Positions 1 to 14,698 of a stretch of DNA of 64,000 nt are shown here, piece by piece (within the stretch, counting starts at the first letter, position 1; the number at the start of each line of letters is the position of its first letter). This DNA comes from Candidatus Microgenomates bacterium (GTDB lineage Bacteria; Patescibacteriota; JACPGU01): the NCBI GenBank assembly GCA_016188915.1, contig JACPGU010000001.1, positions 34,111 through 98,110 on the forward strand. The letters are read 5' to 3'. Position numbers and translations under genes: made by a program. A model generated the notes under the pieces. That model was not told where the DNA came from. It saw only the letters and a program-made list of their open reading frames with translations, and did not search any database.

Positions 1-10
1 CTTATCCTCC

Positions 11-2767
11 GTGGACATCGCCTCTATTATCTTTGACATTGTGCGTCTATTGCTTTATGCCCTGATTATCGCTGGGTGGTTTTGGGGTTTTTTGCTATTG
101 GCTAATGCTTACAAAAAAAGACGCAAAAGATTTTGGTTAGTCAAACAAGAATATACTACTTTGTTGGTCCAAGTACCGCGCAATAATGAAAAAGGCCCAT
201 TGTCTGCTCAATTGATGTTTGCTTCTATTCACGGTATTTATAAATCGGCCAAAGAGAGACTATCCGAAGGATCTTTTCAAGAGCACATCAGCTTTGAGAT
301 AGTTTCAATGAGCAAATATATTAAATTTTATGTCTATGTGCCGACCCATCTGAAAGATTTCATAGAGGGCCAGATTTACTCTCAATACCCGACCGTGGAA
401 ATGCGCGAAGTAGATGATTATACCTTGGCTAGGAGATCAGAGGGAATGCATTTTGTCGGCACCGAATTGGCTCTGGTCAAAAATGATTACTATCCTATCA
501 AGACCTTTGTTAATTTTGAAGTAGATCCGCTAGCTGGGATTACCGGCGTTTTGTCGCAAGTAGAAGAAGATGAGCAGATTTGGGCGCAATTTTTGGTAAG
601 ACCATTGGATGATAGTTGGCAGAGGAAGGCGATCTCTTATGTTTCAGATTTGAGAGCAGGTAAAAAATCTTCTTTCGCCGGCAAAGGAGTAGGGGGAATT
701 TTTAGTTTTTTGGGTTTGGTTTTAAAGGCTTTGAGCGCGCCACCAGAACAGGGGACAGCGGCCAAACCAGTCAAATTAGCCGGACCGGTAGAGCAGGCCG
801 TCAAGGCGATTGAGGACAAATCCACCAAACTGGGCTATGAAGTAAAAATCCGTCTAGCTTTTTTGTCGGACAAAGATCCAGAATCGATGAAGATCAAAAT
901 TCAATCTATCGTGGGCGCTTTCAAACAATACAATTCTTCCAATCTTAATGGTTTTGCTCACAAGAGTACCCATATGGACGATTTTGATTTTATGAACAAA
1001 TTACAGACACGCAGTTTTGAGGAGCCAGGCTTTGTTTTGAATATTGAAGAATTAGCTTCTTTGTACCATTTGCCAACGGCAACCGTTGAGACACCGAGTA
1101 TCGTCTGGGCGGGAGCTAAAAAAGGCGAACCACCGGCAATTTTGCCACTAGAAGGAGTAGTGCCGTCAGATCAATTAACTGCCTTTGCTCAAACTAATTT
1201 TCGCAATAAGGTGGCTAATTTTGGTATCAAATTAGACGATCGTCGCCGTCATATGTATATCATTGGACAAACCGGTACAGGTAAATCCAATATGATGAAA
1301 AGCATGGTCTTGGACGACATCAGAGAGGGGAGGGGATTGGCGGTTATTGATCCGCATGGCGAATTCATTGATACGGCGTTAGACTATATTCCGGAAAATC
1401 GTATTAAAGACGTAGTGGTGATTAACCCGGGCGATAGAGAATACAGCGTTGGTTTTAATTTGTTGGAAAATATCGATCCGGACAGAAGGGAGATTTTAGC
1501 GTCCGGAATGATGTCTATTTTTAAAAAAATCTGGGAAAATGTCTGGTCGGCCAGGATGGAATATATTATGAAAAATATCCTCCTCGCGCTTTTGGAAACG
1601 CCGGGTTCTACTTTGCTTGGCGCGACTAAAATGTTGGTCAATGCCGAATATCGCAGAATGATCGTGGACAATATCACCGACCCTGTAGTGAAAGAATTTT
1701 GGATCGCCGAATTTGAGAATCAGCTGAAAACCAATCCCAAATTTGCCACTGAGGCGGTGGCGCCGATCCAGAACAAAATCGGTCAATTCATCGCCGTACC
1801 CTCTATCCGCAATATCATTGGTCAGCCCAAAAGCACGATTGATATTAAAGAGATTATGGATAACAAAAAAATCCTTTTGGTCAAAATTTCCAAAGGCGAG
1901 ATCGGCGATGACAATATGGCGCTTTTGGGAGCAATGTTGATCACCAAAATACAGCTAACAGCGATGGAAAGATCAGGGACGAGAGAAGAAGAGATGCAAG
2001 ATTTTTATCTCTATGTTGATGAATTCCAAAATTTTGCCACCAGCTCTTTCGCCACTATTTTGTCTGAAGCGAGAAAATACAAATTGAACCTGATTATCGC
2101 CCACCAGTATATCGCTCAAATGACGCAGGAGGTTAGAGACGCGGTGATAGGCAATGCCGGCACAGTGGTGGCTTTTCGTGTCGGTCCGGACGACGCGCCT
2201 ATTTTGAAAAAAGTTTTTGAGCCAGTTTTTGACGAAAACGACCTTTTGAATTTGAGCAATTTTCATATTTATATCAAATTGATGATTGACAATACGGTCA
2301 ATCCGGCTTTTTCAGCTATTACCTTACCCTATACGCGCAATCAAAAGCCCGAGGGTAATCGACAGGCTATTCTAGAGCGCTCCCGCCATAATTTTGCGAT
2401 TAATAGGGGAGTGGTAGAGCAAGCGATTCTGACTTGGAGCCAGCAGATGGCAGAGTTGGAAGAAAGCGCGAAAAAATTAGGTAAAAAAGGTAAAAAAGAA
2501 AATAGGGAAGAGGGAGAAACAAAAATAATCGGCGACATAGCTTATCGTGAGATTAAAGACAAAAAAGGCGGTATCTGGTATGTTAGAAAAGATAAAATTG
2601 GTGATAACGCGAATACGGAAGAGGGGAGTAGGGGGCACGAGGGTATTCGTGATATAAAAATAGCAGAGAATGAAATCGCGGAAGATATGATTTTAACAAA
2701 AAGCGATGGCAGCAATAACAGGGTAGGGGAGGAGGCTTTGACGCCCGGGCAGACGGTGGAATTGTAA
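11..2767 (+). CDS. Membrane-anchored P-loop ATPase of the VirB4/TraG (T4SS) - HerA/DUF87 superfamily, paralog 1. The N-terminus may be truncated by the window edge or start at GTG 11.
   Basis: 918-aa ORF with an N-terminal hydrophobic segment. Walker A is IIGQTGTGKSNMM followed by VIDPHGE; Walker B-like is LYVDEFQNF, then ARKYKLNLIIAHQ. Homologous to ORF 6307..8814 (shared ELAS(L/I)(Y/F)H(L/F)P...TPSIVW block). Confidence 0.6.
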   Translation: MDIASIIFDIVRLLLYALIIAGWFWGFLLLANAYKKRRKRFWLVKQEYTTLLVQVPRNNEKGPLSAQLMFASIHGIYKSAKERLSEGSFQEHISFEIVSMSKYIKFYVYVPTHLKDFIEGQIYSQYPTVEMREVDDYTLARRSEGMHFVGTELALVKNDYYPIKTFVNFEVDPLAGITGVLSQVEEDEQIWAQFLVRPLDDSWQRKAISYVSDLRAGKKSSFAGKGVGGIFSFLGLVLKALSAPPEQGTAAKPVKLAGPVEQAVKAIEDKSTKLGYEVKIRLAFLSDKDPESMKIKIQSIVGAFKQYNSSNLNGFAHKSTHMDDFDFMNKLQTRSFEEPGFVLNIEELASLYHLPTATVETPSIVWAGAKKGEPPAILPLEGVVPSDQLTAFAQTNFRNKVANFGIKLDDRRRHMYIIGQTGTGKSNMMKSMVLDDIREGRGLAVIDPHGEFIDTALDYIPENRIKDVVVINPGDREYSVGFNLLENIDPDRREILASGMMSIFKKIWENVWSARMEYIMKNILLALLETPGSTLLGATKMLVNAEYRRMIVDNITDPVVKEFWIAEFENQLKTNPKFATEAVAPIQNKIGQFIAVPSIRNIIGQPKSTIDIKEIMDNKKILLVKISKGEIGDDNMALLGAMLITKIQLTAMERSGTREEEMQDFYLYVDEFQNFATSSFATILSEARKYKLNLIIAHQYIAQMTQEVRDAVIGNAGTVVAFRVGPDDAPILKKVFEPVFDENDLLNLSNFHIYIKLMIDNTVNPAFSAITLPYTRNQKPEGNRQAILERSRHNFAINRGVVEQAILTWSQQMAELEESAKKLGKKGKKENREEGETKIIGDIAYREIKDKKGGIWYVRKDKIGDNANTEEGSRGHEGIRDIKIAENEIAEDMILTKSDGSNNRVGEEALTPGQTVEL

Positions 2768-2841
2768 GTCTATAAAGTGCTGTAAAGCGTTTGTGTACGC
2801 ACCTAAAAAATTGGTGAAATAAAAAGAAAAGGAGAAGAGTC

Positions 2842-2955
2842 GATGAAATGGATCATTGGAGGAATTATTATTCTTGCAGTGCTTGCAGTGCTTGCAGTGG
2901 GCATTATCTGGGCAATTAGTAAAATAGTCTGCGAAATGGCCGGTTGCAACGACTG
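2842..2955 (+). CDS. Tiny hydrophobic membrane peptide (37 aa) MKWIIGGIIILAVLAVLAVGIIWAISKIVCEMAGCND.
   Basis: Strong RBS (aaaggagaag, 7 nt upstream of ATG). Single TM helix with a (cttgcagtg)x3 tandem nucleotide repeat; C-terminal CxxxxC. Sits immediately 3' of ATPase paralog 1. Confidence 0.35.
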
Positions 2956-2980
2956 AATAAAAAAGGAGGGAGAAGATTGT

Positions 2981-3103
2981 GATGAATATAGTTTTATCGT
3001 CGGTCTTAGTGGTTGTGCTTCTCTTTTTTTCTCTGGAGAATAATGGCGTGATTTTTCGCTTTCCAAAATCTATACGACCTATAAGTCACGGCCGTGAGTT
3101 ATA
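2981..3103 (+). CDS. Tiny hydrophobic peptide (40 aa) MNIVLSSVLVVVLLFFSLENNG...; the 3' end runs into palindrome A.
   Basis: RBS aaaaaggaggga upstream of ATG 2981 (alternative GTG 2978). Hydrophobic N-terminal helix. Confidence 0.3.
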
Positions 3104-3112
3104 GGTCGTATA
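3071..3112. promoter_or_regulatory. 42-bp near-perfect palindrome TATACGACCTATAAGTCACG-GC-CGTGAGTTATAGGTCGTATA (palindrome A), operator-like.
   Basis: Read directly from the sequence. The arm CGTGAGTTATAGGT is shared with the palindrome at 14669..14698. Confidence 0.5.
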
Positions 3113-3282
3113 CAAAAGGAATGCCTGTGTCGATTGACTGGGCATTTTTTGTTTGAGAAAGGTGGTGGTTGTCATGTCGGTTTTTACTTTCGGCAACATT
3201 GTGATATAATTTTGAACAGGTTCTAGGGGAGTCTGCCCCTTAACTTGTTGGAAACCGAAAACGAAAAAAAGGAGAGACAGCC

Positions 3283-3762
3283 GTGGCGAAAATCCTTCGT
3301 GTTACAGGATTCTTTTTTCAGAAAGGAATAAGGCTTGGCTTTGGGTTTGACGATGATGGAGAAAGGATCCCAGGTGTGGTGGCGTTGATAACCGCCACGG
3401 AATTTTTAGGCGCAATTTATATTTCCGAAGAGGAAGCAGGAGGAGATTTGTTTGACATCTTGGAGCATGGCAGGGGTCGCAATGAGCCCGGCGTTGATGC
3501 TTCTAGCCTTTCGGAGATTAAACTGACGGACGAGGAGTTCTCCTTCGTCAAGACATATAAAGACGGAAAGCCCCCGGTTCAGTACTCTTACCGCAAACAC
3601 CCAGACAGCAATGACAAGGTCAGTCCCTGGAAAGGGGAGTGGGTGATAGAAGCCGATGACGAGAGCGGAGAAGAGCGAGGCCCCACCAACTGCATGCTCG
3701 TGGAAATGCCGGAGTGGCTCTACGAGGCGCCAAAAGACTACGACTGGCCGGAGGGCGCATAG
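3283..3762 (+). CDS. Hypothetical acidic protein (159 aa).
   Basis: ORF with RBS aaaaaaaggagagacagcc before a GTG start. Upstream TGaTATAAT extended -10 at ~3199-3207. No recognisable domain. Confidence 0.45.
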   Translation: MAKILRVTGFFFQKGIRLGFGFDDDGERIPGVVALITATEFLGAIYISEEEAGGDLFDILEHGRGRNEPGVDASSLSEIKLTDEEFSFVKTYKDGKPPVQYSYRKHPDSNDKVSPWKGEWVIEADDESGEERGPTNCMLVEMPEWLYEAPKDYDWPEGA

Positions 3763-3798
3763 CAGATCTTTCTTGACTAAACTGAAAGGAGAGAGGGC

Positions 3799-4179
3799 AT
3801 GAAAATAGTTAAGTTTTTCTGGGTGCGATCAATGGCGAATGGGAAGGCGAAGGTATACCCCGCCGATCCAAAAGACTATGGCAAGACTTACCCCAGAACG
3901 GCCGTCGAATTCCGGGGCAAAGAGTCTTTTTTGAATGTTGGTTCTGGGATGAGAAGGATTGTGACAATAGATCACCGCGATAGAATATTTGTCGAAAAAG
4001 ATTCCAGTCCAGGGATCTATGGCAGTTTTGGAGTGATACTGCCAATCAAAAGAGGGTTAACTAAAAGGCAGATTGTCAGTAAAATTCTCAAAAAGTGGGA
4101 AGCCGAGGCCAGGGAAGGCATGGAATACAAAGACGGAGTCATGAGGGAAAGAATTTTCAGGGTGGAGGTGACGCTTTAA
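3799..4179 (+). CDS. Hypothetical protein (126 aa).
   Basis: ORF with RBS aaaggagagagggc before ATG. Followed by a double-hairpin terminator. Confidence 0.5.
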   Translation: MKIVKFFWVRSMANGKAKVYPADPKDYGKTYPRTAVEFRGKESFLNVGSGMRRIVTIDHRDRIFVEKDSSPGIYGSFGVILPIKRGLTKRQIVSKILKKWEAEAREGMEYKDGVMRERIFRVEVTL

Positions 4180-4188
4180 TTTTTCCGT

Positions 4189-4233
4189 CCGGGTTTTGCC
4201 CGGATTAACGGGGCCGCAAGGCCCTTTTGTTTT
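4189..4233 (+). terminator. Rho-independent terminator: two GC hairpins (ccgggttttgcccgg; gggccgcaaggccc) followed by a T-run.
   Basis: Stem-loops followed by TTTTGTTTT. Confidence 0.6.
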
Positions 4234-4585
4234 ACCTCTATTTTTTACCATTAAGCCTAAGCCTGCTTTCGCAAATCCCCAAGAGCAAACTTATAGGAAA
4301 TTTATTCGACCGCTAATTCACGATCGTGAGATAGAGGTCGAAAATAGTAAATACCTATCGAGGAAACGAGGAAGGCAGAACGAACATCGTTTGAGCTTAA
4401 TGTTTTAGCCTGGTAAGTGTAGGGAAGGCCGGGGCTTAGTATATTAAAGGATGCCCAAACGTCAGATATCTTTTAAGGGTAATTGTGAAGATTATCTTTC
4501 TAATCTGGTGTATCAGGTTAGGAATAGGGCTATAAGCCCGTAAAAGGGGATATGCCTTTTTATTTTACCCTGTAAAACCTTGACA

Positions 4586-4600
4586 TTATGCTAAAATATG
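4586..4600 (+). promoter_or_regulatory. Candidate extended -10 promoter (aTGcTAAAATat), adjacent to a TTGACA hexamer.
   Basis: TGnTAAAAT motif. The same tatgctaaaatat string occurs upstream of the small gene at 49312. Confidence 0.25.
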
Positions 4601-4893
4601 TTGCAATATGCAAACCTGTCAATGGCAAATAATGGCTAAATAGAGCCAAAGATAGGAGAGGGGAGGGGGGAAATAAGAAAATAAAAAAATAAGAAATTAA
4701 GAAACTAAATGAGTAGGGAATACGAGGCTAGAGATGTCGCACAAGATACCTTTTGCGACATAGGGTGGGGGCTAAACCTGAAACAGAGCCTTTCTCCTTT
4801 GACTATCATCTCGTTTGTTGTTCAGTAGTGTTTTTTATTCAAGCTCCCCTACCCTATGTCGCAAAAGGTCAATCTGATTGGCGATACGGATCC

Positions 4894-4931
4894 GATGTCC
4901 GACATCTGGGCATCCTTTGATGTCGGACATC
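4894..4931. promoter_or_regulatory. Two copies of the 13-bp palindrome GATGTC(C/G)GACATC separated by 12 bp; operator-like tandem site.
   Basis: Read directly from the sequence; center-to-center spacing is 25 bp. Confidence 0.4.
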
Positions 4932-5103
4932 TTTAAATTCGCCAGTCCCCTACTTTTTATTAATTTATTCGCAAAAATTAGCTTAAATCAGGTATAATTT
5001 ACAATTTCCCATTTAAATGCCCCAGGATGTGTTTTTTGTGTCAAAGTGGGGCAAGACTACCTTTTTTACCCAAAAATAACAGTGGTAGTGGCGTAAAGAC
5101 CTC

Positions 5104-5140
5104 AAAAAACCACCCCTAGATATTTCGGAGTGGTTTTTTG
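5104..5140 (-). terminator. Bidirectional rho-independent terminator (aaaaaaccac...gtggtttttt) ending the minus-strand operon 8814->5193.
   Basis: 9-bp stem with a 17-nt loop, flanked by an A-run and a T-run. Confidence 0.6.
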
Positions 5141-5192
5141 ATACATATCCTTACTTTTTTAATTTTTTACTTTCTTATTTTCTTAGCCAGGG

Positions 5193-5735
5193 CTATTCTT
5201 CAATCGCGGCGCTTTCAATAGCGGCCCAAGAAGATTCTTCGTCGGCGGGAATGGCAATAGTGACGGAATCGCCTGGTTTCAAACGATAATAAGTGACCGA
5301 AGCCAACAGAACCTTGTAGGATTTACTGCCGGCTAATACTTTGTATTGATTGTCTTCAAAAAGCAGTGAGCCAACTAATCTTTTTCTTTCTATGGGTTTG
5401 ATTTGTTTGTAGACGAAAGATCCATCATCTTCAATGGTCAATTTCAAGATGTCTCCTGGAACAAATTTGGATTTACTGGCGTAATTGGCCGGCACGGGAT
5501 ATTTCTTTTTGTCTGGGCCCATCATCATTTCACCGTCAAAAACACCTTCTATCATTTTGCCCTCCGACAAGATATTCAAATCAGCGGCTTTCTGGGCTAG
5601 ATTAATGCTTTTTAGCTTTTTTGTTTTTCCGCCAGATTCGCTGTTCAAAAGTTGCATCGCTGAACGGATTTGCGCTTCAGCCGATTCTAGCAGATGTCGC
5701 ACAATATCGAGATTGTTTTGTTCTTCTTTTGACAT
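5193..5735 (-). CDS. Hypothetical protein (180 aa), last gene of the ATPase-pilin operon.
   Basis: Long ORF co-directional with and closely spaced to the pilin-like gene. No recognisable domain. Confidence 0.5.
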   Translation of the reverse strand: MSKEEQNNLDIVRHLLESAEAQIRSAMQLLNSESGGKTKKLKSINLAQKAADLNILSEGKMIEGVFDGEMMMGPDKKKYPVPANYASKSKFVPGDILKLTIEDDGSFVYKQIKPIERKRLVGSLLFEDNQYKVLAGSKSYKVLLASVTYYRLKPGDSVTIAIPADEESSWAAIESAAIEE

Positions 5736-5842
5736 GGCTTTGTCTGTTTTTATGGTATTTTTTTGAAATATGTGGCTATACTAACACAAAATATAAAACA
5801 AGGCAAGAGTTTTATCCTGCTCTCCCCTACCCTGTTTGAGAA

Positions 5843-6226
5843 TTAGGGCGCTGAAGAAAGAATTTTTTTTATAAAACTCATCAAGGCCCAAGAAAAAAAC
5901 GTAAAAAGCCCGCCGACTATGGCTGCGGTCAGGGCTTTTTTGGCTGTTTCTACTTTTTTAGGATCACCGCCAGAAGTAGTGTAAAGAAAACCAGCCACAA
6001 TAATCATTATAGTCATAATAAGGCCGGTTGCCCAAGCGATATAATTGATGCCACGCCGCAAAAAACAGAAGACAAGAGAACGCCCATCAATATTTGGGTC
6101 GGAACAGATATTAGTAATAGTATCCAAATTGTTAGGGTCTGCCTCTTGTGCCAGAACTACCAATGGCAGACTCCAGGTTAGCCAGCCGGCAATTATTGTC
6201 CAAAAATGAGAAATATTTTTTAGCAT
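5843..6226 (-). CDS. VirB2/TrbC-like pilin candidate (signal peptide plus two hydrophobic helices).
   Basis: 127 aa. N-terminal signal-like segment ending ...VVLAQEA. Two TM helices separated by a short GGDPKK loop. Immediately downstream of the VirB4-like ATPase on the same strand. Confidence 0.45.
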   Translation of the reverse strand: MLKNISHFWTIIAGWLTWSLPLVVLAQEADPNNLDTITNICSDPNIDGRSLVFCFLRRGINYIAWATGLIMTIMIIVAGFLYTTSGGDPKKVETAKKALTAAIVGGLFTFFSWALMSFIKKILSSAP

Positions 6227-6306
6227 ATAATCTTTAACTATTAATTTTTATCCGCTCTAACCTTCTCCAATTCCCCACTCTTCACTTTCCACTTTCCACT
6301 AATATA

Positions 6307-8814
6307 TTACGCTCTATCCCGAATCTCTTCTTCCACGATATTACGATCTCGGCCATATTGCAAGCGCGATAAACCGATGATAGCTTCGGCTATTTTGGGA
6401 TTTTTTTCTATTTTAGAAAAATCCAAAAAAGTGTTCAAGGAAAAAGGTCGCAAATTGGTATTGTCTACCAAAAGGCTCAAATAAGCATTACCACTTTCCA
6501 GATTGGCGATGTCATAAGCATTGAAAACAGGTTCGTATTTTTTTTGTAAAAATTCGGCATCTTCTTCTCCTACTCGAAAAGTGATGAAGGTGCCAACGTT
6601 GCCAAAGACAGCGTCTTTTATCTTGGTATCCCCTCCTTTGCTTATCAGTTGATTGATAAATTGATGGCCGATAGTAAGAGCTAGCTGATATTTTCTGGCT
6701 TCAGATAAAATAGAAGCCACGGAATCAGTCGTAAAGTTTTGAAATTCGTCAATATAGAGGTAAAATGGTTTGCGGTTTTGCTCCGGCATATCTACTCTGC
6801 TCATAGCGGCCAGATATATTTTGCTGACCATAATCAGACCCAGAAGATAGGCGTTCATCTCCCCTATTTGGCCTTTGGCGAGTCGTAAAATTAATATTTT
6901 TTGATTATCCATCACCTCGCGCAAATTAAAAGCGCTTTTTTGTTGGGCGATCATCGGACGCATAATATCATTGGCGATAAATTGTGTGAGCTTGGAAGTA
7001 ATATAGGGCACAATATTAGCCAGGGCCGCTTCTCCACCAGCTTTTTCTGCTTCTTTAAGCCAATAATTTTTTATTATTGGATTGGCACAATGCGACAATT
7101 TCATCATCCGAAAATCTTCATCAGACAAAACACGAGGGATCTCCATAATAGTCGAGCCACTTTCGGGGTGCTCCATCACCAGCAAGGCCGCGTTCCTGAA
7201 ATATTGCTCAAACATTGGTCCACCCGTGGAACGCAAATCGTATAATTTATCAAAAACATTCATCAATTCATTCAAGACCAAAGTTTTCTCTTCTGGTCTG
7301 GTATATTCCAGTAAATTTATGCCGATTGGCCTCTCAAAATCGGCTGGATTAAAAAGAATAACATCCCCTACCCTTTCTTTCGGTATGCGTAAAAGAATGT
7401 CATCGGCATCAGTGCCGTGTGGATCTATGTAGCATAGCCCCTGGCCATTTTTTATATCTTGAATGATCATTTCTTTCATCAGAGTTGATTTGCCGCTACC
7501 AGTTTTGCCCACGATATAGGTATGGCGAACACGATCTTTGGGGCGCATATAGACGGGCGTCCTCAATCCGCGATAAATATTGACACCCAGATAAAGACCT
7601 TCTTTCGGTGTCTCCGGCGGAGCCGCTGCTCTTTTGGACAAAAGCCAAACGATAGAGGGTGTATCTGTATAGCGGTTGGGAAAATGGAAAATAGAGGCTA
7701 ATTCTTCGGTATTTAGAATATTTTTCTCCGCCGAATATGGAAAGGCGCGAAAAACGAAATTTTCAGCCACTATTTTGCTAGTTTGTTTTTTATTAGGTGT
7801 AAAAAAATTACCCGAAGGATGGCGGAAAACAGAAAAAGCGCTGACGATATTATTCAAATGCATTTTGGCCAAAGCTTCTTGGTCGGAAGAGACGACAACG
7901 CGGACTAAAGCCTCAAAACCGACAAAGGCGGCTTTTTCGCCAATCATTTTTATTTTTTGTTCAGTAATAGGGGTAATGGTTTTGGTTTTTTCCGCTTCTT
8001 TTTTGGCCACTTCTTCTGTTTTGAAAGGAGCAGCAGCCAATTCACCTCCTAGTTTGCTGGTAGATTCAGCGATTTTAACCCAATCAATTTTTCCTCCGGG
8101 TCCTCCCCTGCCTTCTTGCAGAGAGTGAATATAATGCTCAGAAATCTTCTGCCATTTTGTTTTCGTGGGACGAATCAATATTTGAACGGCTGCCGCTTCT
8201 TCTGGGCCTAGCTTGAACAAAGTATTGGTGATGGTGTTGAGCGGATCGGTCTCAAATTCTTTGTAGGTTTTGATAGGCATAGCTACTGACTGGCCAAGAG
8301 TTAATTCACTGGCGGCATATTTATCGTCATCTTGAAAGATATTATGGCGTTCTGTTTCTTCCAAAACAGCATCAGGGTAAAAGCTATGGATTTGTTTTTC
8401 TACCAAGGTCAATAATTCTTTTGGTAAAGCGATATAGAAAAATATCTCGCCTTTTTGTGAAACTATTTCAAAAGAAATGTGTGGAGATTTTTCGTGCCAC
8501 CAATTTTTTATTTTGGTATCGCAAACGCTGTATAGCGAAGAAAACATTTGACTAGCGCGGGAGAGCAATTCTTTGTGGTCTTTTTTGGATTCTTCTTCCT
8601 CGCGGGAAGATTTTTTAGGTAACATTATTTTAAGCAAAACCATGTCCAGAGCGCGTGGGATTTTTTTGCTTTGATAGCGTAAATAACGATAAGTATTGAT
8701 TAGCAAGATGGCTGTCAGAATTACAATAGTAATAACGACTAGCCAATACAAAAAATAAAGCAAATTGGTGGCAAGATCTGCTCCTTGGTAGATTGAATTG
8801 TCGACGTATTCCAT
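6307..8814 (-). CDS. Membrane-anchored P-loop ATPase of the VirB4/TraG (T4SS) - HerA/DUF87 superfamily, paralog 2.
   Basis: 835 aa. N-terminal TM segment. Walker A is IVGKTGSGKSTLM followed by YIDPHGT; Walker B-like is LYIDEFQNF, then ARKYQLALTIGHQ. Collinear homology to ORF 11..2767. Confidence 0.65.
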   Translation of the reverse strand: MEYVDNSIYQGADLATNLLYFLYWLVVITIVILTAILLINTYRYLRYQSKKIPRALDMVLLKIMLPKKSSREEEESKKDHKELLSRASQMFSSLYSVCDTKIKNWWHEKSPHISFEIVSQKGEIFFYIALPKELLTLVEKQIHSFYPDAVLEETERHNIFQDDDKYAASELTLGQSVAMPIKTYKEFETDPLNTITNTLFKLGPEEAAAVQILIRPTKTKWQKISEHYIHSLQEGRGGPGGKIDWVKIAESTSKLGGELAAAPFKTEEVAKKEAEKTKTITPITEQKIKMIGEKAAFVGFEALVRVVVSSDQEALAKMHLNNIVSAFSVFRHPSGNFFTPNKKQTSKIVAENFVFRAFPYSAEKNILNTEELASIFHFPNRYTDTPSIVWLLSKRAAAPPETPKEGLYLGVNIYRGLRTPVYMRPKDRVRHTYIVGKTGSGKSTLMKEMIIQDIKNGQGLCYIDPHGTDADDILLRIPKERVGDVILFNPADFERPIGINLLEYTRPEEKTLVLNELMNVFDKLYDLRSTGGPMFEQYFRNAALLVMEHPESGSTIMEIPRVLSDEDFRMMKLSHCANPIIKNYWLKEAEKAGGEAALANIVPYITSKLTQFIANDIMRPMIAQQKSAFNLREVMDNQKILILRLAKGQIGEMNAYLLGLIMVSKIYLAAMSRVDMPEQNRKPFYLYIDEFQNFTTDSVASILSEARKYQLALTIGHQFINQLISKGGDTKIKDAVFGNVGTFITFRVGEEDAEFLQKKYEPVFNAYDIANLESGNAYLSLLVDNTNLRPFSLNTFLDFSKIEKNPKIAEAIIGLSRLQYGRDRNIVEEEIRDRA

Positions 8815-9073
8815 TTTGTTTTTTGTTTTGCAATCTTTGTTTTACTTTATCATAATTTGTTTTGTCAGGCAAACAAAATACCCCGGCCTCTTTTAAGGGA
8901 CCAGGGCGGAAATAGGCGCTTTTTGTTATTGTCGATTGCGCCGATCAATCGCTTCCAGGCGAGTCGCTGTCTTCCTGAAATTAAATCCAGAAAGGCAAAA
9001 CTGAACCAAGAAGCGAAAGAGGAAATTAGCAATTTTCATAATTTGGCCACCTTCCTTGGCGTAAAGATTACTT

Positions 9074-9940
9074 TTAGAGTTCTCCTTCAGAAAAAGCGCG
9101 GAGGAGATCAAATTGCTCCAAGACGATCTCTTCCATCAAGGCCTGCTCTGCGTCGCTCAAAAAATACGGCAGAAAGGGGCGACTTTCCAGGAAATTAAAT
9201 CGCAGGCTCATCGTTCTTATGTCCATTCCTCTGGCCCAAGGAAAGGAGGGTCTCTCGCGAAAAGACTGCATTCGTCGTCGGTACCATGGTTCGGAATGAC
9301 GATCCTGCTTTTTTTCTTCAAATAACGGGATGACTTCGCCTCTTTCCTTGGCTTTTTCCCTGATGGCCCAGAGAACGCCACGCGCTTTTTCCACTGAATC
9401 GCCCAAGGAGTATTCGGGCTCAAAATTGGGCATAACCGGAATAATATGTTCGGCGAAATCAGCCGCTTCGTACGAATTGTAAAAAGGAATGCTGTCGTAA
9501 TATTCGGCTGAAAAATCCTCGGTGCCGTCAAAAAAATTATGAATGGCCGCTTCGAAAATTTCAGCTTGCGGGATATTTTCGCCGAAGGCAAACGAGCGAT
9601 GCAGGGCGAAGGGTTCGTCGTTGGTGCCGGCGCCGAGCAAGACCAAATGGGCGTGACGATCGACCTCTCCGGAATCGTTTTTCTGTAGCTCGCTTCTCTG
9701 ATAGACATAGATGATGCTGTACTTGGTATGATCCAAGGTGCGACGGGCGATATTGCAGAAAAAGCGCACTGTTTCCACGGGGAGGGCGGTATTCTTCTCG
9801 TTCTCTTTGACCTGGCAGGAACGATCATGAGGGATTGTGACGATCATCTCCATGTCAAAAACGCGATCTTCAGCTTTGGCCGGGCTTGCTCCGACCAAAA
9901 TCAGCAGAAACAGAAGCGACAACCATTTGGGGGTTTTCAT
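9074..9940 (-). CDS. Secreted hypothetical protein (signal peptide MKTPKWLSLLFLLILVGASPAKA); locally GC-rich.
   Basis: 288-aa ORF with a signal peptide. The internally overlapping same-strand ORF 9217..9828 is judged spurious. Confidence 0.5.
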   Translation of the reverse strand: MKTPKWLSLLFLLILVGASPAKAEDRVFDMEMIVTIPHDRSCQVKENEKNTALPVETVRFFCNIARRTLDHTKYSIIYVYQRSELQKNDSGEVDRHAHLVLLGAGTNDEPFALHRSFAFGENIPQAEIFEAAIHNFFDGTEDFSAEYYDSIPFYNSYEAADFAEHIIPVMPNFEPEYSLGDSVEKARGVLWAIREKAKERGEVIPLFEEKKQDRHSEPWYRRRMQSFRERPSFPWARGMDIRTMSLRFNFLESRPFLPYFLSDAEQALMEEIVLEQFDLLRAFSEGEL

Positions 9941-14586: not shown

Positions 14587-14668
14587 AATGAATTTTTAAT
14601 GATAAACATAATCCAATTATAGCATATACTTTTCTAATTTCTAAGACGATGTCATCTTAAGACACATG

Positions 14669-14698
14669 ACCTATAACTCACGACCGTGAGTTATAGGT
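14669..14698. promoter_or_regulatory. Palindrome B: ACCTATAACTCACG-AC-CGTGAGTTATAGGT, about 80 nt upstream of the cupin gene start. Same family as palindrome A.
   Basis: Perfect 14-bp arms; shares CGTGAGTTATAGGT with 3071..3112. Confidence 0.5.

Follow-up and report, generated by a model that had tools for sequence, protein, structure and literature searches.

Patescibacteria are host-dependent bacteria, and a type IV secretion system (T4SS) is essential to that lifestyle; two ATPases that resemble its coupling proteins are ubiquitous among them. The closest described relatives of the proteins treated here are the patescibacterial VirD4-like homologues of type IV coupling proteins (T4CPs) of Quinonero-Coronel et al. 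2025 (PMC12102498), of which 5,713 were found in 2,918 Patescibacteria genomes, 148 of them near virB4, and which were considered possibly exapted. Epibiotic growth requires T4SS and pilin genes (PMC12102498; PMC12857230), and possible T4SS pili have been described in a cultured relative (bioRxiv 10.64898/2026.06.21.733656). In the current study, we analysed a stretch of 64,000 nt (the window) from a Candidatus Microgenomates metagenome-assembled genome (GCA_016188915.1, contig JACPGU010000001.1, positions 34,111-98,110, forward strand), in which two such ATPases, here called A1 and A2, face each other across a candidate replication terminus, together with a T4SS pilin gene and a gene for an OB-fold protein.

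A sequence-only reading had taken the first 8.9 kb of the window for one minimal T4SS-like DNA-transfer module built around a divergent pair of ATPases. This observation was partly confirmed and its interpretation partly supported: the apparent T4SS module consists of two conserved operons that meet at the putative terminus and lie side by side through synteny. The lesson for genome scanning is that terminus synteny, not function, made the module appear.

Two convergent operons meet at a putative replication terminus

The main features of the locus are the following, with lengths in amino acids (aa) and transmembrane abbreviated as TM:

11..2767, plus strand: A1-type ATPase, 918 aa (MBI2447959.1), with a TM helix, DUF8128, a T4CP-like P-loop domain and an acidic/basic C-terminal tail
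4734..4761, no strand: dif-like site, 11-6-11 bp, sole copy in the 64-kb window (position weight matrix (PWM) score 35.3)
5193..5735, minus strand: 180-aa protein with an N-terminal helix and two OB/S1-like beta-barrels, conserved ATPase partner
5843..6226, minus strand: 127-aa VirB2-like T4SS pilin (PF18895) with a signal-peptide-like helix and two TM helices
6307..8814, minus strand: A2-type ATPase, 835 aa, with a TM helix (14-49), DUF8128 (about 50-400), a T4CP-like P-loop domain and a putative all-alpha insert

The two ATPase genes are separated by 3,539 nt, in agreement with the spacing of about 3.5 kb given before, and they are convergent, with their 3' ends facing, not divergent. On the plus strand, A1 is followed by genes for proteins of 37, 41, 159 and 126 aa, while the minus-strand order is A2, 127-aa pilin and 180-aa OB protein, as previously read from the list of open reading frames (ORFs). 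Between the two operons lies about 1 kb (4180-5192) without a conserved or convincing ORF. A large non-coding region had indeed been described here; as a part of a secretion module, on the other hand, it did not hold up, since it appears to be the terminus with its dif-like site.

The 28-bp site at 4734-4761 reads ATGTCGCACAA GATACC TTTTGCGACAT, and the equivalent site in the close relative L084 reads ATGTCGCACAA TGTATC TTATGCGACAT. A PWM built from nine sites, which themselves score 35-44 bits, gave one match in the window (35.3; runner-up 12.6), the control maximum being 17 bits over 2.6 million positions in A2-type loci. A single site of equal layout and place was present in all six close relatives, a set that comprises L001, L082-L085 and the window's own contig (L081), with A1 proteins 54-71% identical and L001 covered solely over the A1-to-A2 interval. 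It also lies directly 3' of the A1-type gene in all three distant genomes (L086, L087, L088). The coordinates are 17165-17192 in L001, 5892-5919 in L082, 14449-14476 in L083, 18172-18199 in L084, 11092-11119 in L085, 13289-13316 in L086, 13156-13183 in L087 and 12864-12891 in L088. The flanks are unconserved, and in BLASTN comparisons of the intergenic regions with those of relatives only the 28-bp site was kept.

The dif site of E. coli is GGTGCGCATAATGTATATTATGTTAAAT (PMC3025954). The sites found here are identical to it at 14-20 of 28 positions (15-17 for the window site, up to 19-20 in relatives), and in several relatives 16-17 of the central 18 positions match. Their arms are nearly symmetric, at 8-11 of 11 positions versus 6 of 11 in E. 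coli dif. Near-symmetric dif arms are also found in single-recombinase systems. Archaeal dif sites are reported to have nearly symmetric arms as well (PMC2958812). Genes left of the site are on the plus strand, and to its right the minus strand carries almost every gene over about 44 kb; the GC skew is +0.18 to the left and about 0 to -0.05 to the right, and it was higher on the left in 19 of 22 loci. Considering the single dif-like site together with the switches of gene orientation and of GC skew, we conclude that the non-coding region bears the signature of a replication terminus with a putative dif site. The resemblance to the FtsK-XerCD-dif system thus covers the 28-bp 11-6-11 layout, the single copy and the position where orientation and GC skew converge, whereas the arms are less symmetric in E. 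coli and the ATPase next to the window site is not FtsK. No description of dif in Patescibacteria was found in the searched literature.

A non-coding RNA or a hairpin like that of an origin of transfer (oriT) was also considered for this region and ruled out, since the site has an 11-6-11 layout, resembles E. coli dif, occurs once and coincides with the switch in skew. Rfam returned no match, either at the gathering threshold over the whole window or in E-value mode over 4150-5250, apart from one weak match of a miRNA-precursor model to a long inverted repeat on both strands, and a tRNA scan returned none. A Pfam scan of 27 further window ORFs, among them all long ones, revealed no xer gene; it assigned IleRS, LeuRS, ClpB-like, HisRS, RadA, FtsZ, FtsA, NusA, CCA-adding enzyme, Tgt and a U32 peptidase, the rest remaining unassigned.

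The ATPases belong to two paralogue families with a DUF8128 domain

A1 and A2 are paralogues that align over about 820 aa with 33.5% identity (E 2.6e-142), which bears out the homology proposed for them. Both contain the P-loop motifs quoted earlier (GQTGTGKS/GKTGSGKS, DPHG, DEFQNF, IIAHQ/TIGHQ) and, as also proposed, each has a single N-terminal hydrophobic helix by hydropathy. Both score above the Pfam gathering cut-offs for PF10412 (TrwB_AAD_bind), PF01935 (DUF87) and PF12696 (TraG-D_C), and their N-terminal ~350 residues correspond to PF26449 (DUF8128) in precomputed annotation. With hidden Markov models (HMMs) for the two types, A1 scored 1462 on the A1 HMM versus 714 on the A2 HMM. Walker A, Walker B and many other positions of the catalytic core were invariant among 98 homologues. 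We conclude that A1 and A2 are members of two old Patescibacteria-wide paralogue families of DUF8128-containing VirD4/TrwB-type ATPases.

They belong to the set of VirD4-like homologues described by Quinonero-Coronel et al., with no essential difference: a genome likewise encodes about two of those proteins, and their genes lie far from virB4. The S. epibionticum protein SEML1_0293 (921 aa versus 918 aa in A1) shares PF10412, PF12696 and PF01935 with A1 (residues 402-719 versus 401-724), and in both cases a gene with Sigma70_r4 and HARE-HTH domains lies upstream. The VirD4-like set (PMC12102498) is already known, as are DUF8128 and PF18895 in Pfam, and the locus refines a known kind. PMC12102498 does not mention DUF8128, a division of the ATPases into A1 and A2 families, the OB partner or the adjacency to dif, nor were the accessions of this genome found in its supplement. 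The searched literature did not contain the division into two paralogue families, a constant OB partner, the A2-OB-A1 operon described below, the possible VirB4-like layout, the dif-like site or its adjacency to A1-type genes. What the locus adds is two old paralogue families, a constant OB-fold partner, a possible VirB4-like layout and the position of the A1-type gene beside dif.

Compared with conjugative TrwB, VirD4 and TraG, A1 and A2 have the same FtsK-HerA-type P-loop NTPase domain matching T4CP profiles, whereas the two-helix membrane stem of those proteins is replaced by one TM helix followed by the 350-aa, presumably cytoplasmic DUF8128. Besides, unlike the conjugative proteins, they have no relaxase, oriT or mating-pair formation genes nearby and stand in a chromosomal housekeeping context. 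They fall below the cut-offs of VirB4 models (TIGR00929, 33.7 bits versus 643), and PF03135 (VirB4/CagE) gave no match in either ATPase. Patescibacteria have a separate bona fide VirB4, and A1 and A2 are without adjacent VirB3, VirB6 or VirB8 genes. The alpha-beta-gamma layout of FtsK/SpoIIIE was not found, a gamma-like winged helix being absent.

An AlphaFold (AF2) model of A2, built from 98 homologues (pLDDT 90.9, pTM 0.83), comprises, after one long helix near the N-terminus (14-49), a DUF8128 region of alpha/beta type and a P-loop domain with a helical block (509-613) inserted between Walker A and Walker B. Comparison with known structures gave values of 29.5 for the VirB4 C-terminal domain, 28.2 for the DptH C-domain, 27.8 for TrwB (366 of its 420 residues aligned), 25.5 for HerA, 24.0 for DotL and 17.4 for FtsK. 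In Foldseek, full-length VirB4 (TrwK of R388 and the T. pseudethanolicus protein being the references) ranked at the top: the alignment to TrwK/VirB4 spans about 900 columns (E 1.6e-14), but with a global TM-score of 0.30, followed by TrwB (E 4e-11, target-normalised TM-score about 0.65). Based on these values and this ranking, the modelled ATPase half clearly belongs to the VirB4/VirD4 branch, and the arrangement of N-domain and ATPase may be VirB4-like in the model.

Full-length similarity, including DUF8128, extends to proteins of Bacillus myophages, namely SPO1 gp27.4 (FJ230960.1), phage G gp156 (JN638751.1) and the 'VirD4 component-like' protein of SP8 (MW001214.1). The family phrog_5156 matches the ATPase over residues 36-822 (E 1e-87), and tblastn gave about 21% identity over 80-86% of A2. 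These homologues differ from A1 and A2 in their viral context, without a T4SS.

Searched alone, DUF8128 retrieved 1,905 cluster representatives, in all of which it is N-terminal. The domain also heads giant proteins of 1,267-2,006 aa (P0401, P0409, P0412, P0413, P0418, P0423, P0424, P0429, P0443, P0488), and in one contig group the DUF8128 and ATPase parts are separate neighbouring ORFs; the loci of these giant and split proteins are L125, L129, L132-L135, L137 and L139-L141. The C-terminal tail of A1-type proteins (residues ~807-918, window ~2430-2767) is charged and of low complexity, with two conserved motifs, Y-R/K-E-x5-G-x2-W-Y and a terminal (L/I)KxGxx(I/V)x(L/I), that may bind a partner.

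Pilin, OB partner and gene order in other genomes

The candidate of VirB2/TrbC pilin type was substantiated by the profile search, in which the 127-aa protein scored 35.7 bits on PF18895 (T4SS_pilin) against a gathering cut-off of 26.6; NF045849 gave 25.8 bits, under its cut-off of 40. Its hydrophobic segments span residues 8-26, 59-87 and 98-119, and it shares a signal peptide and a pair of hydrophobic helices, together with a short loop of basic character, with VirB2/TrbC pilins and with the pilin arrays of Patescibacteria (PF18895). It differs from those arrays in being a single gene that adjoins a T4CP-like gene instead of virB4. A pilin-domain gene occupies the matching position 3' of A2 in all six close relatives, own contig counted, where the domain is found inside proteins of 125-699 aa. 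The 180-aa protein, modelled as an N-terminal helix with two OB/S1-like barrels, is 54-60% identical to its best-matching homologues from other lineages.

Conservation of the neighbourhood was likewise found in part: the order of A1, OB, pilin and A2 is kept in close relatives, and the genes between A1 and the site are not. The common order is secD-secF-DUF1290-sigma factor gene (Sigma70_r4 and HARE-HTH)-A1, then variable genes, then, on the other strand, A2, the pilin-domain gene and the OB gene. The ~365-aa Sigma70_r4 and HARE-HTH protein 5' of A1 is encoded at 571-1674 in L081 (just upstream of the window start), 8781-9869 in L083, 8758-9855 in L084 and 6022-7125 in L085. In S. epibionticum, SEML1_0294, annotated as RpoS and essential, matches both domains and precedes the probable A1-type gene.

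Of 80 distant A2-type loci from GTDB genomes, 69 had enough sequence, and in 27 of these the OB gene lies co-oriented and directly 3' of A2, usually followed by dnaX. A second ATPase occurs in only 2 of the 80 loci and is unlinked in the other 78. Berkelbacteria and other lineages have the order rplJ-rplL-tgt-...-A2-OB-A1, which converges on secF-secD, and the tandem order A2-OB-A1 was also found in metagenome contigs. The tandem order is thus recurrent across distant lineages and may be the ancestral one; A1 of the window's clade, by contrast, lies across the convergence point from A2 and OB. The ATPases are 45-70% identical, in step with neighbouring genes, which points to vertical inheritance.

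Directly 5' of the A2-type gene, 59 of 74 loci encode a small protein that is helical and measures about 130-300 aa (typically 140-190). It has no Pfam family (e.g., L007 836-1330), seems to be fused to the ATPase in L025 (1,010 aa), and is absent from this position in the window's clade. In S. epibionticum, the essential 139-aa protein SEML1_0141 may correspond to it.

Possible roles of the two ATPases

We lean towards the reading that the locus is a terminus where two vertically inherited operons converge on a dif-like site, and that A1 and A2 are T4CP-like proteins serving a chromosomal patescibacterial T4SS; our confidence in the T4SS-coupled role is only moderate. The left operon ends with A1, and the right one comprises A2, the VirB2-like pilin and the OB-fold protein, the genes for the 37-, 41-, 159- and 126-aa proteins being presumed lineage-specific cargo inserted beside dif. 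Each ATPase would be anchored by one helix in the cytoplasmic membrane, with DUF8128 and the ATPase body in the cytoplasm, as suggested by the Lys/Arg residues after the single TM helix, and would assemble into a ring at the membrane by analogy with TrwB and VirB4. ATP hydrolysis would then feed a substrate into, or energise, a chromosomal T4SS with VirB4, VirB3 and VirB6 encoded elsewhere. The substrate is probably a nucleic acid passed on by the OB-fold partner, which suggests that it may be single-stranded, and the pilin would be a subunit of the patescibacterial T4SS pilus. Retention of the pilin gene in the A2 operon within the window's clade would tie A2 to this T4SS.

Several findings weigh against such a role. 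VirB4, VirB3, VirB6, VirB8 and relaxase were not found among the window ORFs scanned with Pfam, in line with the earlier remark that other core parts of a T4SS are missing. Pilin adjacency is restricted to the window's clade, only one of the 80 distant A2-type loci having another weak pilin-like match, upstream of A2. The two-TM-helix stem of T4CPs is absent, the single helix being followed by the 350-aa DUF8128, and the best NCBIfam T4CP equivalogs scored 57.5 bits (NF045973, cut-off 250) and 59.2 bits (TIGR03743, cut-off 366). Across the phylum these ATPases are rarely near virB4 (148 of 5,713), and VirD4-like homologues are present in more genomes than virB4 is (2,918 versus 2,417 of 3,035; PMC12102498). 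Full-length homologues occur in Bacillus myophages, which are without a T4SS.

Two rivals are live. One holds that A2, OB and A1 form a core machine independent of any T4SS, which imports or processes host RNA or DNA or serves another housekeeping substrate, the pilin being incidental; we regard this as a possibility of lower, though not negligible, probability. It would agree with the near-universal presence of about two such ATPases per genome, also where virB4 is absent (PMC12102498), with their setting among rplJ/rplL, tgt, dnaX and secDF, with the conservation of the OB partner (54-60% identity to best-matching homologues), and with phage homologues that operate without a T4SS. Host RNA is the food of a cultured relative (bioRxiv 10.64898/2026.06.21.733656). 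Moreover, SEML1_0142, a 'TraM recognition domain' protein of 1,019 aa that by annotation is probably the A2-type gene product, and SEML1_0141 encoded upstream, probably its small partner, were scored essential (PMC10633639 supplement). Against it stand the grouping of the ATPase domain with T4SS ATPases by both sequence and fold, the retention of the pilin gene in the A2 operon of all six close relatives, and the lack of an evident transporter or channel partner.

The other live rival makes the A1-type protein an extra FtsK/SpoIIIE-like translocase acting on terminus DNA and aiding chromosome segregation or Xer recombination at dif, which would explain why its gene stays beside dif; we consider it unlikely. 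The site is directly 3' of A1 in all nine genomes first examined. A metagenome scan with the A1-type profile yielded 32 more loci in which the A1-type gene was clear and the sequence extended far enough downstream; a PWM match of at least 20 lies within 600 nt of the A1 stop codon in 16 and within 6 kb in three more, while 13 have no site in the available sequence, which speaks against this role. The far side of the site varies by lineage (A2 operon; secF-secD; ftsQ-murG/ddl-ftsW) and A1 is constant. The adjacency of A1 and dif exceeds chance, but it could be inherited synteny, since neighbouring housekeeping genes (ribosomal, tgt, secDF) are conserved around the site too. T4CPs and FtsK belong to one superfamily, and TraB and TcpA move double-stranded DNA without a full T4SS (PMC12857230). 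On the other hand, A1 is without a gamma-like winged helix, and S. epibionticum has both a canonical essential FtsK (SEML1_0096, 4TM/alpha/motor/gamma) and a XerC-like recombinase (SEML1_0117; Wang et al. 2023, PMC10633639 supplement). Its SEML1_0293, which by size, domain and neighbour is probably A1-type (921 aa, PF10412 at 402-719, next to the sigma/HARE-HTH gene), was non-essential in transposon sequencing (PMC10633639 supplement) and is followed by co-oriented GNAT, cas9, cas1 and cas2 genes, with no convergence point.

That A1 and A2 replace FtsK is unlikely, given the canonical essential FtsK of S. epibionticum; a search of 2.3 Mb of Patescibacteria DNA with an approximate E. coli FtsK motor query and motif regular expressions, a weak test, gave no match to canonical FtsK. 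A bolder proposal, which we rate as improbable, is that the A1-type ATPase and dif form a conserved gene-site unit, either as a second T4CP-derived translocase working beside FtsK on terminus DNA or by using dif as the point where chromosomal DNA enters or leaves through the T4SS; A2-OB-A1 would then be a Patescibacteria-specific machine for nucleic-acid translocation with a VirB4-like two-domain body. These hypotheses, mainly the A1-dif linkage and the A2-OB-A1 unit, are testable in genetically tractable Saccharibacteria.

The explanation first offered, a single self-contained apparatus for DNA transfer or uptake in which the ATPases, the pilin, the tiny peptides and the other proteins of the 8.9 kb cooperate, now appears very unlikely. 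It drew on the presence of T4CP-like ATPases and a T4SS pilin inside 9 kb and on the strong ribosome-binding sites of the tiny ORFs. It is largely refuted by the synteny comparison: no homologue of the tiny peptides or of the 159- and 126-aa proteins was found in 80 loci, and the content of their slot differs in five relatives; the terminus site separates A1 from A2; distant ATPases are unlinked (78 of 80) or in tandem with the OB gene alone between them; and the VirB6, VirB8 and VirB3 channel parts and VirB4 were not found in the window ORFs scanned. Instead of a minimal apparatus, the ATPases represent vertically inherited paralogue families embedded among housekeeping genes, about two per genome and seldom beside virB4 (PMC12102498). 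The least probable of all is a remnant of a conjugative or integrative element or an anti-phage defence ATPase of the HerA, DndH or MADS type, to which the PADLOC matches (mad8, HerA, DndH) would point. These matches are limited to the shared P-loop domain, for which reason a defence ATPase was ruled out; a relaxase, integrase, nuclease or methylase partner and att sites were not found, and the housekeeping synteny conserved across classes and the 45-70% identity in step with neighbours indicate vertical inheritance.

Variable genes and repeats around the terminus

The remaining features of the locus are as follows, with Shine-Dalgarno sequence abbreviated as SD:

2843..2956, plus strand: 37-aa ORF, hydrophobic, preceded by a strong SD, part of the variable cargo, no conservation
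2979..3104, plus strand: 41-aa hydrophobic ORF with a GTG start and a strong SD, unconserved, without a gene call in the public assembly
3071..3112, no strand: 42-nt palindrome over the 3' end of the 41-aa ORF (repeat search)
3283..3762, plus strand: 159-aa acidic protein, lineage-specific cargo (ORF list, charge count)
3799..4179, plus strand: 126-aa basic protein, lineage-specific cargo (ORF list, charge count)
4186..4225, plus strand: GC hairpins, terminator-like, at the end of the plus-strand operon
4846..4931, no strand: extra dif-arm copies (repeat search)
5102..5141, no strand: palindromic hairpin between an A-run and a T-run, candidate bidirectional terminator 3' of the 180-aa gene
9074..9940, minus strand: 288-aa protein with a hydrophobic N-terminus upstream of A2, unconserved, no family

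The 37-, 41-, 159-, 126- and 288-aa proteins had no homologue among the 80 genome loci searched. In five relatives, the slot 3' of A1 is taken up by a gene for a 619-aa protein, for a DAHP synthase or for a 219-aa protein, or by seven hypothetical genes without relationship. The two proteins described as acidic turned out to differ, the 159-aa one being acidic (33 D+E versus 17 K+R) and the 126-aa one basic (15 D+E versus 27 K+R). The strong ribosome-binding sites ascribed to the tiny hydrophobic peptides are present and of the AGGAG type, and all four cargo genes have them (window 2820-4180), whereas A-rich leaders lacking an AGGAG ribosome-binding site precede the A2, pilin and OB genes (window 5736-8840). 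This difference fits a foreign origin of the cargo genes.

The repeat search detected palindromes built on ATGTCGCA in the non-coding region, among them the dif-like site at 4734-4761. Positions 4846-4869 are an inverted copy of 4748-4771, i.e., the right dif arm with its G-rich flank (24 nt, 96% complementary, 74 nt apart), and GATGTC(C/G)GACATC palindromes occur at 4894-4906 and 4919-4931. The dif-arm repeats of 4846-4931 may be pseudo-dif scars of Xer-mediated insertions; past insertions of this kind would fit both these arm-like repeats and the cargo found from A1 to the site, which is variable and rich in SD sequences.

A family of small palindromes of 30-40 nt, located between genes or at gene ends (3071-3112, 4305-4342, 14668-14698), has the core ACCTATAA(G/C)TCACG(G/A)CCGTGAGTTATAGGT and may represent repetitive extragenic palindromic (REP)-like elements or terminators. 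G-rich words are strongly polarised toward the dif-like site, with GGGNAGGG counted 44 times toward and 6 times away, GCAGGGGA 35 and 0 times, and TAGGGGAG 51 and 2 times, in counts pooled from the window and 23 loci around the site (375 kb). This polarity, similar to that of FtsK-orienting polar sequences (KOPS), was set aside as evidence, being inseparable from gene-strand bias or ribosome-binding motifs.

The slot of the 288-aa protein upstream of A2 is filled by a different gene in relatives; its N-terminus looks signal-peptide-like by eye and was unflagged in the hydropathy scan. A 39-aa ORF at 4709-4828, called as a gene in the public assembly, overlaps the dif-like site, is without an SD and is probably a spurious call.

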